Origin: a bacterium
GTDB lineage: Bacteria; Zhuqueibacterota; Zhuqueibacteria; Residuimicrobiales; Krinioviventaceae
Direction: 5' to 3'
Length of the DNA stretch: 34,603 nucleotides
NCBI GenBank assembly: GCA_024278645.1
Contig: JAJRST010000546.1
Span: 1 to 34,603, forward strand
The notes under the pieces are model-generated. The model was not told the origin of the DNA. It saw only the letters and a list, made by a program, of their open reading frames with translations, and did no database searches. Both the position numbers and the translations under genes were made by a program. Below, piece by piece: positions 8,446 to 12,181 of this stretch (position 1 is the stretch's first letter; every line of letters begins with the position of its first letter).

Positions 8446-9846
8446 TTGGAGATGTTTATTGTGGAAGAAAAAAGAAGACCAAAAATATTGATTGTCGATG
8501 ACGACAAGAATATTTGCAAGATGATTGAGGCAAGTCTTCGAAAAGAGAGAAAGTACGATATAAATACAGCGTTGAGCGGCGAAGCGTGTTTAAAGATTAT
8601 TAAAGAAGAGTTGCCGGATCTTTGCCTGGTTGACATCCAAATGCCGGGCATCGATGGCATCGAAACCCTGAAGCGAATCAAGGAAGAAGATCCTCGCGTG
8701 CCGGTGATCATGATGACAGCGCACGGCACCATCGAGCGCGCGGTGAACTCGATGAAACTCGGCGCCTACGACTTGTTGACAAAGCCGTTCGCGCGCGACC
8801 GCTTGCTGGTTACTGTTCAAAACGCCCTGATCAACAGCTCACTGCAAAGAGAAGTAAGCGAACTGCGTTCAGAGTTGAAAAGCAAATACACTTTTTCGAA
8901 TATTGTCGGTCAAAGCGGCATCATGCAGGATGTCTTTCGGTCGGTAGAAAAAGTTATGGACAGCAATGTAACCGTTTTGATTCAGGGCGAGAGCGGCACC
9001 GGCAAAGAGCTTATTGCGCGGGCGATACACTACCATTCTAAAACGAGAGCGAACAAACCATTTGTCGCCGTCAATTGTTCCGCGTTGCCTGAATCTTTGC
9101 TCGAGAGCGAGCTCTTTGGTCACGAGAAAGGTTCTTTTACGGGCGCCGCGGGACGTCGAATCGGCAAGTTTGAACAGGCCAATGGCGGCACTATTTTTCT
9201 CGATGAGATCGGCTTGATGACGCCGGCAACGCAATCCAAAATTCTGCGCATTCTGCAGGAGCGCGAATTTGAACGAGTCGGCGGCAATGAATTAATAAAG
9301 GTCAATGTTCGCGTCATTTCCGCCACCAATAAAGATCTGGAAGAAGAAATGAAAAACGGAACTTTTCGCGAAGACTTGTTTTATCGCATTTCTGTTTTTC
9401 CGATTAAATTACCGGCCCTTCGTGAGCGCAAGGAAGACATTCCTCTCCTCGCAGCTCATTTCCTGAAAAAATATAATGAACAAGAAGGAAAAGAGGTTGA
9501 CGGCATCTCTTCGGATGCACTGGACCTTTTAATGGCTTATAATTGGCCCGGCAATGTCCGCGAACTTGAGAATGCCATGGAACGCGCCGTTGTGCTTGCC
9601 AACAGCTACGAAATCACAGCCAAAGAGCTGCCGCCTGCTGTCCGCTCACTGGGTGAAAAACGAATATACGAATCCGACAACACGCTGGCTAGTTGGATTG
9701 AAAAGTTAGAAGAGCAGGCGCTGCGTCAAGCATTGCTCGAATGCGAAGGAAATATCTCCAAAACCGCAAAACAGTTAGGCATCGGCAGGGCGACCATCTA
9801 TCGCAAGGCAAAAAAATACGGGCTTCCGATGGTCAAGACGAGTTGA
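8446..9846 (+). CDS. Sigma54-dependent Fis-family response regulator (NtrC class: REC + AAA+ + HTH_8)
   Basis: Canonical receiver (ILIVDDD, LVDIQMPGIDG, MMTAHG, TKPF). Walker A GESGTGKE. Sigma54-contact loop ESELFGHEKGSFTGA. Walker B IFLDEIG. C-terminal ISKTAKQLGIGRATIYRKAKKYG. The start is uncertain (TTG 8446, ATG 8452 or GTG 8461). Confidence 0.93.
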   Translation: MEMFIVEEKRRPKILIVDDDKNICKMIEASLRKERKYDINTALSGEACLKIIKEELPDLCLVDIQMPGIDGIETLKRIKEEDPRVPVIMMTAHGTIERAVNSMKLGAYDLLTKPFARDRLLVTVQNALINSSLQREVSELRSELKSKYTFSNIVGQSGIMQDVFRSVEKVMDSNVTVLIQGESGTGKELIARAIHYHSKTRANKPFVAVNCSALPESLLESELFGHEKGSFTGAAGRRIGKFEQANGGTIFLDEIGLMTPATQSKILRILQEREFERVGGNELIKVNVRVISATNKDLEEEMKNGTFREDLFYRISVFPIKLPALRERKEDIPLLAAHFLKKYNEQEGKEVDGISSDALDLLMAYNWPGNVRELENAMERAVVLANSYEITAKELPPAVRSLGEKRIYESDNTLASWIEKLEEQALRQALLECEGNISKTAKQLGIGRATIYRKAKKYGLPMVKTS

Positions 9847-9872
9847 TTTTCACTTCACGTTTTGTGGTTTAT

Positions 9873-9911
9873 GGGCGAATCCCTTCTTAAGGGTTCGCCC
9901 ATTTTTGTTTT
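9873..9911 (+). terminator. Rho-independent terminator after the activator gene
   Basis: Stem gggcgaa(t)ccc / gggttcgccc with one bulged base, 7-nt loop, followed by atttttgtttt. Confidence 0.6.
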
Positions 9912-9954
9912 AGTGTGATACACTGTTTCGCTTGTACACAGCCCTTGTGTTACA
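9912..9954. promoter_or_regulatory. Candidate upstream activator sites (inverted repeats)
   Basis: AGTGT-gat-ACACT (9912-9924) and the imperfect inverted repeat TGTACACA-gccct-TGTGTTACA (9933-9954). Their centres lie about 105 and 80 nt upstream of the -24 GG, the usual distance for enhancer-binding-protein sites. Confidence 0.25.
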
Positions 9955-10021: not shown

Positions 10022-10036
10022 TGGTATGTAATTTGC
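10022..10036 (+). promoter_or_regulatory. Candidate sigma54 (-24/-12) promoter
   Basis: TGGTATGTAATTTGC versus consensus TGGCACG-N4-TTGC. GG and GC are separated by exactly 10 nt, and only two defined positions differ. It lies directly downstream of a sigma54 activator gene and about 135 nt upstream of the next long ORF. Confidence 0.55.
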
Positions 10037-10105
10037 TTAAAACAGTTCATCAGAAATGCATCGTTTTCTGCCAAGTGTGTGGGCGCCATTTCTGAGAACC
10101 CGCAG

Positions 10106-10168
10106 ATGGATGCTATCTGTAACGAGTGTGGCAGAGTTTCTAATGTGAAGTGCGGGGAATGCGGATAG
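10106..10168 (+). CDS. Possible 20-aa zinc-ribbon-like leader peptide (MDAICNECGRVSNVKCGECG)
   Basis: ATG..TAG mini-ORF with a CxxCG-x6-CxxCG pattern. It is in the same frame as the downstream 369-aa ORF and separated from it by only TAG plus one codon. No clear RBS. Confidence 0.2.
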   Translation: MDAICNECGRVSNVKCGECG

Positions 10169-10171
10169 CAA

Positions 10172-11281
10172 GTGACTCAAATGAAGTTGGGAACAATGGA
10201 GAAAACAAGTTTAGCTCAGTTGGTACGCGATATTTGTGCAGGCGATTATTCCCAGGCACAATTGGTTGAATTCATTAATTTGACTCAGAAAATCTCTCTC
10301 GGATATCTCAAATACCAGGAAATTATTGGTAAGCGAATATCCGGCGAGCGGGTTGATACAACACTAGAGTTGCAAGACCTTGCGGTTGATTGTATTGCAG
10401 AGCTGTTCAGCGGCGATGGAAATGGCAACTTCCCGCAGCTTAAAAAGTATTATGAACCCAAATATGAAGAAACTCAAAATATTGACGACGCCGAGGTTCT
10501 TATTTTAACTCGCCGGTTGGTGGTGCGCAAGACAAAGCAGGAGCTGTCACGAATTTTCCGGGAACGCGATCCGGAGGGCGCCAAAATTGTTCGCAACATA
10601 AAGGTCGCTATTCGGACATCCGAAAAGCTTGCCATGTTCGCTGACTTGGGTAAAGAATATGTTTTTTATAAAAATGGCCTCGAATTAAATCCGAATGAAC
10701 CTGTCGACGTCGATTTGATCGCCGGCTATTTGCGCAGAAAGAACCCCCCCATTCCTGAAGACCTGCTGCACACACGTTTTATTGACATTTATAATCCTTC
10801 CGATTCTGTTTCGAGTTCCATCCGAAAATTGCTGAGGACCGTTCACGATTTTAACGACTATCAGAACTTTCTGCCGATAGAAGTGATCGTAAAATTAATA
10901 CGACGAGTGAAATTCAATGCCGTTAAAGAAAAACTTGCCGCCGATGATTCCGTTCCCACTCCTCTTGATGTGCTGGAAGTCAAAGAGATCGAGAGCTATA
11001 TAGATGTGGTGATGGAAAAAGTCGAAAGAAAAATAAACACACAGTACCTTCGTTCCAATAAACTGGATTATCAACGCGCAGAGATTTATGCCAAAGCTCT
11101 GAGAGATGTTTTAAACGACCTCATCCAAAAAAAGGACAATTCATCGTACTTTAGGAATCTTCGATTCTACTTGCCTGAACTTACGCAGAGAGAATACCGA
11201 CAGAATGAAAGATCGGTGTTCGAATATCTTGCCAAAGTTGCCAAAAGAGAGTTTCGGAAACATTTAAAAGAATTGCTTTAA
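10172..11281 (+). CDS. Hypothetical protein; divergent sigma70/ECF-like factor with a long insertion between region-2-like and region-4-like segments (tentative)
   Basis: The N-terminus LAQLVRDICAGDYSQAQLVEFINLTQKISLGYLKY...LQDLAVDCIAELF...LILTRRLVVRKTKQELSRIF follows the ECF region 2 pattern (L..LV...GD..A...L......Y......D.AQD...E.F......IARN...D..R). The C-terminus LPELTQREYR...YLAKVAKREFRKHLKELL resembles region 4. Start is GTG 10172, or ATG 10181/10196. Coding status is solid; the function is inferred. Confidence 0.55.
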   Translation: MTQMKLGTMEKTSLAQLVRDICAGDYSQAQLVEFINLTQKISLGYLKYQEIIGKRISGERVDTTLELQDLAVDCIAELFSGDGNGNFPQLKKYYEPKYEETQNIDDAEVLILTRRLVVRKTKQELSRIFRERDPEGAKIVRNIKVAIRTSEKLAMFADLGKEYVFYKNGLELNPNEPVDVDLIAGYLRRKNPPIPEDLLHTRFIDIYNPSDSVSSSIRKLLRTVHDFNDYQNFLPIEVIVKLIRRVKFNAVKEKLAADDSVPTPLDVLEVKEIESYIDVVMEKVERKINTQYLRSNKLDYQRAEIYAKALRDVLNDLIQKKDNSSYFRNLRFYLPELTQREYRQNERSVFEYLAKVAKREFRKHLKELL

Positions 11282-11384
11282 ATTTTTCCGTAAAATCTGT
11301 TTCTTGTCTGTACTCTTTAATAGTTTTTCACCAAAAAGGTGATGGACAATTAAACGGTCACTTTGGCAAAAAGATCTGTGTATT

Positions 11385-12056
11385 ATGAAAAAACAAGAAA
11401 CGACCTTCAAAGGTAGTTGTGAGCACAGCAACCTAACGGAATTGCTGTATCTGGGCCAACTTGAAAATGAAGAGGAAAAAAAGCTCGCCCAACTTCATTT
11501 ACAACAGTGCCCTGTTTGCAAGAGGACATTTTCAGAACTTGAGCAACAATATCGATTTATAGAAAAAGAGATTCAAAAACCGGTCACAAATAAAACATTG
11601 GATCTGGCGAAGGAGGTAGGCTCAAAGGATACAAAGTATGGGCTTTTGATTTGTGAACCGGTCGAATCGGCAAAGACGAACAAAAAGGCGGCGCCTTACA
11701 AAGCCAAAGTCCTTTTTACCGCCAATGGCGCCGGAAATACAAAGAATAAAAAACTGGCCGATTTTAATCTAAAGTCTCTACCTGAAGACAGCATTGCTAT
11801 TCGGGCTATGACCGACAAAAAGTGTAATAAACTGTTGTTGTATCTTTGGAGTCCTCAAAATGAAGACTTTGACGGTTGGGAGCTTAAAATTTCGGGAGAG
11901 GCAAAGGCAGTTTTTAATCTGTCAGGCATGTCTCAGATTCCCCTGATGGAAATTGAAGATCTGAATGGAAAAGTGATCTATTTCAAAGAAAGGCAAACGG
12001 CATTCGCATCCGGAAATAGATTTACAAATATAAAGAGTTCAATCACGACTCTGTAA
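11385..12056 (+). CDS. Anti-sigma-factor-like protein with zf-HC2 motif, apparently soluble
   Basis: CEHSNLTELLYLGQLENEEEKKLAQLHLQQCPVCKRTF carries H-x3-C-x2-C (HLQQCPVC) plus an upstream Cys/His pair, as in ZAS-type anti-sigma N-terminal domains. No hydrophobic transmembrane segment is visible in the 223 aa. Confidence 0.6.
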   Translation: MKKQETTFKGSCEHSNLTELLYLGQLENEEEKKLAQLHLQQCPVCKRTFSELEQQYRFIEKEIQKPVTNKTLDLAKEVGSKDTKYGLLICEPVESAKTNKKAAPYKAKVLFTANGAGNTKNKKLADFNLKSLPEDSIAIRAMTDKKCNKLLLYLWSPQNEDFDGWELKISGEAKAVFNLSGMSQIPLMEIEDLNGKVIYFKERQTAFASGNRFTNIKSSITTL

Positions 12057-12072: not shown

Positions 12073-12103
12073 AAAAGCCGGATGCATATCCGGCTTTTTT
12101 TTT
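12073..12103 (+). terminator. Strong rho-independent terminator
   Basis: aaaa-gccgga-tgcata-tccggc followed by T9 (12095-12103). The A-tract/T-tract extends the stem. Confidence 0.85.
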
Positions 12104-12181
12104 GATAAATAGCTTGCTTTGGTTTCCAATTTTAGATACATTTTTTCATAAGATATTGGAAAAATATATACTTGGCCATCT

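Follow-up and report, generated by a model that had tools for sequence, protein, structure and literature searches.

The H-x3-C-x2-C motif has been defined for class I anti-sigma domains, which were catalogued by way of their adjacency to genes of extracytoplasmic function (ECF) sigma factors and which bind sigma-2 and sigma-4; the roles of ChrR and RsiW are described in the same work (PMC7406223). Among class I anti-sigma factors, solubility is predicted for about 35%, and the zinc motif occurs in about 72% of these soluble proteins (PMC7406223). The described systems that come closest to the locus reported here are SigR-RsrA of Streptomyces coelicolor and SigE-ChrR of Rhodobacter sphaeroides. 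This locus lies in a 34,603-nt stretch of DNA from an uncultured KSB1-type bacterium (positions 1 to 34,603 of contig JAJRST010000546.1, assembly GCA_024278645.1, phylum Zhuqueibacterota, family Krinioviventaceae; hereafter, the window) and consists of two genes, the first encoding a large protein of probably 361 residues and the second a partner of 223 residues. As in SigR-RsrA and SigE-ChrR, the partner is a predicted cytoplasmic protein with an N-terminal Hx3Cx2C domain and a fourth ligand upstream of it, and the two genes form a unit in which the presumed regulated protein is encoded first. In contrast to both systems, the protein encoded first cannot be recognized as a sigma-70 factor and is about twice as long, and the operon is placed under a sigma-54 promoter and not under an autoregulated ECF promoter. 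Short partners of the family (~85-95 aa) presumably correspond in size to RsrA, and we take the 223-aa partner of the window to resemble ChrR in its layout, i.e., an anti-sigma domain followed by a soluble C-terminal domain; unlike ChrR, no Cupin family was among the Pfam matches listed for the partner homologues at E up to 0.1. Taken together, we favor the view, with a probability of roughly 0.55, that the unit encodes a sigma-54-induced regulator, whose fold was not recognized, gated by an anti-sigma-type partner.

A first-pass annotation of the window had described the pair as sigma/anti-sigma-like, with an oversized sigma-like protein accompanied by a soluble zf-HC2 protein. The two open reading frames (ORFs; 10172-11281 and 11385-12056) and the 103-nt gap between them were found as described, and the HLQQCPVC motif noticed in the partner corresponds to residues 38-45. 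Residues 36-47 read AQLHLQQCPVCKR, in which H38-LQQ-C42-PV-C45 forms the H-x3-C-x2-C motif, and C12 provides the fourth ligand. These four residues are invariant in an alignment of 29 partner homologues, and C-x25-H-x3-C-x2-C is the commonest arrangement, with 25 residues between the cysteine and the histidine in 57 of the 78 loci carrying the partner motif (see below). We take this gap to be equal to the C11/H37 spacing of RsrA, whose ligands are C11/H37/C41/C44. A conserved KPVxNKxLDLAK segment is probably helix 4 of the anti-sigma domain. PF13490 (zf-HC2) was detected in 20 of the 29 homologues (best E 3e-5), whereas the window's own partner did not match PF13490 at E<=0.1 and reached NF052375 'antisigma' at E=0.1 only. 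When the partner family profile was compared with the whole PDB, two entries were retrieved and nothing else, RsiW (SigW-RsiW of Bacillus subtilis, 5wuq; E 0.0048) and RslA (SigL-RslA of Mycobacterium tuberculosis, 3hug; E 0.24), both aligned over the H-x3-C-x2-C helix and both of them anti-sigma factors that bind zinc and were crystallized with their ECF sigmas. With its complete set of zinc-binding anti-sigma (ZAS) ligands, the partner thus reads as a true class I zinc-binding anti-sigma-domain protein, as had been proposed.

RsiW and RslA differ from the partner in that they reside in the membrane and bind canonical ECF sigmas. For the partner in the window, the first-pass annotation correctly predicted the lack of a transmembrane (TM) helix, since its maximum Kyte-Doolittle 19-mer score is 0.63, far under membrane-helix values, and such a helix was found only in an Ignavibacteriales relative. 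The first-pass annotation had regarded this solubility as atypical, a view that does not hold given the share of soluble class I factors mentioned above. The C-terminal ~138 residues of the partner, which that annotation could not place, had no Pfam or PDB match in our searches either. The partners encoded at the 78 loci fall into 39 of <=120 aa, which comprise the anti-sigma domain only, and 39 of 191-240 aa, so that half of the family, judging from the sequences, can do without the C-terminal domain. In the Ignavibacteriales relative, the anti-sigma domain of the partner is followed by a TM helix and then by an outer domain of ~340 aa, and Bacteroidota relatives keep a partner that has the N-terminal pattern but no cysteines. 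Because bare, C-terminally extended, TM-bearing, and cysteine-free forms all occur, the family is as modular as is typical of anti-sigma factors. The cysteine-free partners were seen in L017 (5360-5614; labelled Bacteroidota bacterium) and L018 (5077-5895), where the pattern ...LT..ER...E.LIETD... is kept, and they look like zinc-free versions of the anti-sigma domain. In the Ignavibacteriales locus (L016, 1650-4154), both genes were apparently called too short: the large-protein gene extends to 342 aa, and the anti-sigma domain of the partner lies in an uncalled stretch before a 393-aa membrane protein.

The association of the two genes was analyzed in 80 related KSB1/Calditrichota loci. A downstream ORF on the same strand encoding C-x(24-26)-H-x3-C-x2-C was present in 78 of them; the location of a gene beside that of an anti-sigma factor, which is a feature of sigma factors, is thus observed in 78/80 loci, but such a feature of the context is by itself no definition of a family. 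Within KSB1, the pair is located in a lipid A locus; elsewhere, its neighbors are quite different and the pair is still adjacent. In one metagenome-assembled genome (MAG; HK-STAS-KSB1-2), two paralogous large-protein genes (L059 and L083) are each followed by their own short partner, with the zinc motifs HITYCPKC and HIASCNKC. Few features of these genomes are as stable as the pairing, and a chance origin can be ruled out because both proteins form conserved families and their adjacency is kept in 78 of the 80 loci.

It could be argued that the partner controls a canonical ECF sigma encoded elsewhere and that the large protein is an accessory, such as a sensor, a co-inhibitor, or an anti-sigma antagonist. 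At least nine ECF-type sigma genes are present in this genome, orphan anti-sigma domains have been discussed (PMC7406223), and no output domain is recognizable in the large protein. However, with an ECF hidden Markov model (HMM) by which all 10 sigma genes in this genome are recovered, an ECF-like ORF was found within 4 kb in just one of the 80 loci, and on the opposite strand. The constant neighbor of the partner is thus not a cognate ECF sigma but the non-sigma-like large protein, and paralogous copies of the latter each have a partner of their own. Moreover, the large protein is at least 45% identical across the class, whereas only 35 partner homologues were detectable in the word-indexed search, a difference in conservation that fits an output component better than an accessory, and none of the weaker genomic matches to the promoter-like element located between the two genes (see below) lies on a contig holding an ECF gene. 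We therefore consider this explanation unlikely.

The large protein belongs to a widespread family. A word-indexed homologue search returned 346 matches, all named 'hypothetical', and a profile search collected 1,206 representatives (50% identity level), most of them of ~340 aa. It was found in 113 of the 151 genomes of the window's phylum and in nearly all genomes of its class, usually with a single orthologue in each; some genomes also hold divergent paralogues. A word-indexed search with distant members (15 matches) extended the family to Bacteroidota and Ignavibacteriales MAGs. No description of this family was found in full-text searches of the literature. Its size had been given as 369 aa; this ORF exists, but the true start is probably ATG 10196, giving 361 aa, because most homologues have this length and align from M9, the ninth codon of the longer ORF. 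The N-terminal extensions of some homologues are mis-called starts and contain no cysteines. One member of 951 aa (P0168) carries, ahead of the usual 340-aa body, a ~600-residue N-terminal extension of repeated ~50-residue units.

The AlphaFold2 model of the full-length large protein is confident (predicted local distance difference test, pLDDT, 87.4) and all-helical. In the numbering of the 369-aa ORF, residues 9-166 are modelled as a six-helix N-terminal domain with a beta-hairpin, followed by a variable linker and a C-terminal helical domain (residues ~184-369); the N-terminal domain modelled separately gave a pLDDT of 90.2 and a predicted template modelling score (pTM) of 0.80. A basic block, RRLVVRKTKQELSRIFRERDPEGAKIVRNIKVA, forms a long, mostly invariant helix-loop-helix with an isoelectric point of 11.8.

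The first-pass annotation had tentatively taken this protein for a sigma factor, a view to be abandoned if neither a significant Sigma70_r2/r4 match nor a fold similarity was found, and neither was. The window's protein was not matched by Sigma70_r2 (PF04542) or related region-2 models at E up to 1, although the same PF04542 model finds 10 genes in this genome. The Sigma70_r4/r4_2 models of the region-4 helix-turn-helix matched neither this protein nor 96 relatives, and none of these 96 family members (47 close and 49 distant) matched any Sigma70 Pfam model at E up to 10. No sigma match was found in NCBIfam, nothing relevant was retrieved from PDB sequences in single-sequence and profile searches, and an hhalign comparison of a 180-sequence family alignment with eight ECF sigmas of this genome gave a probability of 0.55%. 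At the structural level, a Foldseek search of the PDB with the full-length model returned no match at E<=0.001. SigmaS, sigma32, and sigma70 chains appeared among its non-significant matches (E 2.5-2.8, TM-score <=0.31), beside potassium channels and aminotransferases, with SigmaS having the highest TM-score of that list (0.26/0.31, likewise non-significant). With the N-terminal domain alone, no sigma chain was found in the top 50 matches (best E 0.98, TM-score <=0.29), and a search of a viral fold library with the large protein gave nothing. A possible HPt-like N-terminal bundle, based on a match to the BarA HPt at E=1.1, was rejected in view of the absence of an invariant histidine.

The large protein is thus not a recognizable member of the sigma-70 family, similarity to which was undetectable by sequence or fold, and, judging from the model, it occupies the position of a sigma factor without showing a sigma fold. 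An ordinary sigma/anti-sigma pair, in which the large protein would be an oversized ECF-like sigma-70 factor diverged beyond the reach of sequence and fold searches, would agree with the way in which class I anti-sigma domains were found and with their binding to sigma-2 and sigma-4 (PMC7406223), with the two helical domains joined by a variable linker, with a 'DLAxDCIAELF ... RRLVxRKTKQELSR' pattern reminiscent by eye of regions 2.1-2.4, and with the sigma chains among the non-significant full-length matches. Against this, no sigma match came from the Pfam, NCBIfam, and PDB sequence searches, the hhalign probability was 0.55%, the N-terminal domain model retrieved no sigma chain among its top 50 matches, and each domain of the large protein has roughly double the size of sigma-2 or sigma-4, so that we regard such an origin as quite unlikely.

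The region upstream of the large-protein gene shows a conserved sigma-54 control layout (Table 1). The promoter has GG at -24 and GC at -12 with the canonical spacing, and a match to TGGYAY-N5-TYGC was present within 450 nt upstream of the large-protein gene, once each, in 68 of 78 related loci, for a chance rate that we estimate at ~0.005 per locus; the motif was also found in L001 and L004. In 44 of the 69 loci having this motif, an inverted repeat was detected, where 0.09 in total would be expected from the rest of the same loci, and its distance to the -24 element downstream of it was always 99-127 nt (median 115). A GAFTGA-type activator gene lies upstream on the same strand in 56 of 78 related loci, and rpoN is present in this genome (contig C247). 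The adjacent sigma-54 activator most likely switches the unit on. The hairpin that follows the activator gene sets this gene apart from the two-gene unit, and the strong terminator reported downstream of the pair was also found, as an 11-bp stem and a T-run whose sequence, AAAGCCGGATG...CATCCGGCTTTTTTTTT, is kept in close relatives. With terminators on both sides, the unit is therefore bracketed and self-contained, as had been suggested.

Table 1 Features of the two-gene unit and of its upstream region (positions in the window). Sequences are given for the short elements.
Feature	Position	Strand	Description
Sigma-54 enhancer-binding response regulator	8446..9846	+	REC, AAA+ Sigma54_activat and HTH_8; Pfam E 2e-72 (Sigma54_activat), 1e-32 (Response_reg), 1e-11 (HTH_8)
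Terminator-like hairpin after activator gene	9871..9902	+	12-bp stem, then T-run
Enhancer-like inverted repeat TGATACACTGTTTC	9916..9929	.	Family consensus TGAnACA-N1-3-TGTnTC
Sigma-54 type -24/-12 promoter TGGTATGTAATTTGCT	10022..10037	+	Strict TGGYAY-N5-TYGC
Large-protein gene	10196..11281	+	361 aa from probable start ATG 10196; listed ORF 10172-11281, 369 aa, GTG start
Bipartite promoter-like element TTTTTCCGTAAAATCTGTTTCTTGTCTGTACTCTTT	11283..11318	+	Between the two genes; TTTT[C/A]CG[T/A/C]AA, fixed spacer, TTGYNTGTAY
Partner gene	11385..12056	+	223 aa
Partner N-terminal domain (class I zinc-binding anti-sigma, by sequence)	11385..11639	+	aa 1-85; ligands C12, H38, C42, C45
Partner C-terminal domain	11640..12056	+	~138 aa, soluble; fold not recognized by Pfam or PDB searches
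Intrinsic terminator ending the unit	12073..12107	+	Hairpin 12073-12098, 11-bp stem, then T-run

In the gap between the two genes, the stop codon of the large-protein gene is immediately followed by a bipartite element. The geometry of this element is identical in 64 of 81 loci, in both clades, and, because conserved blocks are separated by a spacer of constant length and variable sequence, it fits a DNA signal such as a promoter. When a matrix built without the window's site was used to scan this genome, that site scored 38 bits and the next match 23 bits, and eight weaker sites of at least 16 bits were found versus none in a reversed-sequence null. The strict pattern was present at the cognate position in three of five relatives' genomes, with one extra match inside a gene on the opposite strand and no control matches. 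The strict element is effectively single-copy per genome. A regulon for it was sought, and nothing convincing was found. The 23-bit site (contig C138, ~1785-1820) lies ~56 nt upstream of a SpoVG-like gene, and in two of four relatives (L103 and L104) a similar site, mainly its -10-like half, was observed 46-53 nt before the SpoVG-like gene. An Rfam search of the leader and the gap gave no family at threshold, only terminator noise, and the RNA fold of these regions was not significant (z-score -1.8).

The element invites a bolder interpretation, in which the large-protein family would be an unrecognized RNA polymerase-binding initiation or specificity factor, sigma-like by function and not by descent, which sigma-54 would induce and a class I anti-sigma domain would keep in check, with the bipartite element as its own recognition site driving its own inhibitor. 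We regard this as a long shot.

The regulator proposed at the outset, induced by sigma-54 and gated by its partner, would operate as follows. The adjacent NtrC-type response regulator would bind the inverted repeat and then activate the -24/-12 promoter, from which the gene of the two-domain helical protein and, by read-through, that of the partner would be transcribed; the partner gene probably also has its own promoter, namely the bipartite element. The soluble partner would bind the large protein through its class I zinc-binding anti-sigma domain and keep it inactive until a cytoplasmic cue, which could be thiol oxidation or zinc loss at C12/H38/C42/C45 or a signal perceived via the optional C-terminal domain, frees it. 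The freed large protein would then be the output of the system, most probably acting on transcription.

Several points weigh against this proposal. Physical binding of the two proteins is something that we infer, as we do the releasing signal, the output activity, and the form of polymerase that uses the bipartite element. No DNA-binding or RNA polymerase-binding domain was recognizable in the large protein with Pfam or Foldseek. The zinc motif is structural in RsiW and need not be a sensor (PMC7406223). Finally, as its -10-like half resembles the conserved region upstream of the SpoVG-like gene, the bipartite element may not be a dedicated site but an ordinary promoter of this lineage whose -35 region is special. 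That the two proteins are co-expressed without binding, the zinc domain being reused for a function unrelated to sequestration, would be in line with the inferred nature of the contact and with the failure of the window's own partner to match PF13490 at E<=0.1, but it appears very doubtful, since the pair remains adjacent while all other neighbors change and, in half of the family, the partner is a bare anti-sigma domain of ~85 aa with little besides the binding module.

Two-tier schemes of a similar kind are known. In polar flagellates, fliA is sigma-54-dependent and its product is subject to the FlgM anti-sigma factor. In the HrpR/HrpS-sigma-54-HrpL cascade of Pseudomonas syringae (PMC5263251), an enhancer-binding activator and sigma-54 likewise induce a second-tier regulator that is under negative control. 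The second tier of these systems is a bona fide member of the sigma-70 family (the ECF factor HrpL or sigma-28), unlike the large protein described here, whose fold was not recognized.

A search of the literature in full text did not reveal a description of an anti-sigma domain with a non-sigma partner. Cataloguing by ECF adjacency (PMC7406223) would by design miss such a domain, which is tied here to a non-sigma-like protein in 78/80 KSB1/Calditrichota loci; both Bacteroidota and Ignavibacteriales contain relatives. Two outcomes can be envisaged, namely that a second kind of protein is under the control of anti-sigma domains or that there is a sigma-like factor invisible to current models and fold searches, and both would change the annotation of anti-sigma domains. 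Defined handles are offered by the conserved sigma-54 promoter, the enhancer site, and the internal element, and the problem comes down to two proteins, three short cis elements, and ~2.3 kb of sequence.

Other sequences in the vicinity of the unit were also inspected. In the leader (10054-10168), two frames encode Cys-rich fragments (CQVCG... and MDAICNECGRVSNVKCGECG*), but a zinc-ribbon-like leader peptide was rejected because even relatives with 82-86% identity do not conserve it; since the leaders of the closest relatives lack these fragments, they are strain-specific and probably without function. A block, AAACGGTCACTTTGGCAAAAA, at 11353-11373, 12-32 nt upstream of the partner start, is conserved in relatives of at least 82% identity; as the lineage has no clear Shine-Dalgarno sequence, this block could serve as a signal for translation. 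Downstream of the unit, an ECF-type promoter had been suggested by the first-pass annotation at 12104-12181, ahead of the next operon (REC-PATAN genes). The sequence conserved there in close relatives was instead TTG-N20-TA(C/T)nTTT (TTG-N20-TAnnTTT), which, in our judgment, is less like an ECF promoter than like the Bacteroidetes-type -33/-7 housekeeping consensus and hints at the use of Bacteroidetes-type promoters in KSB1.

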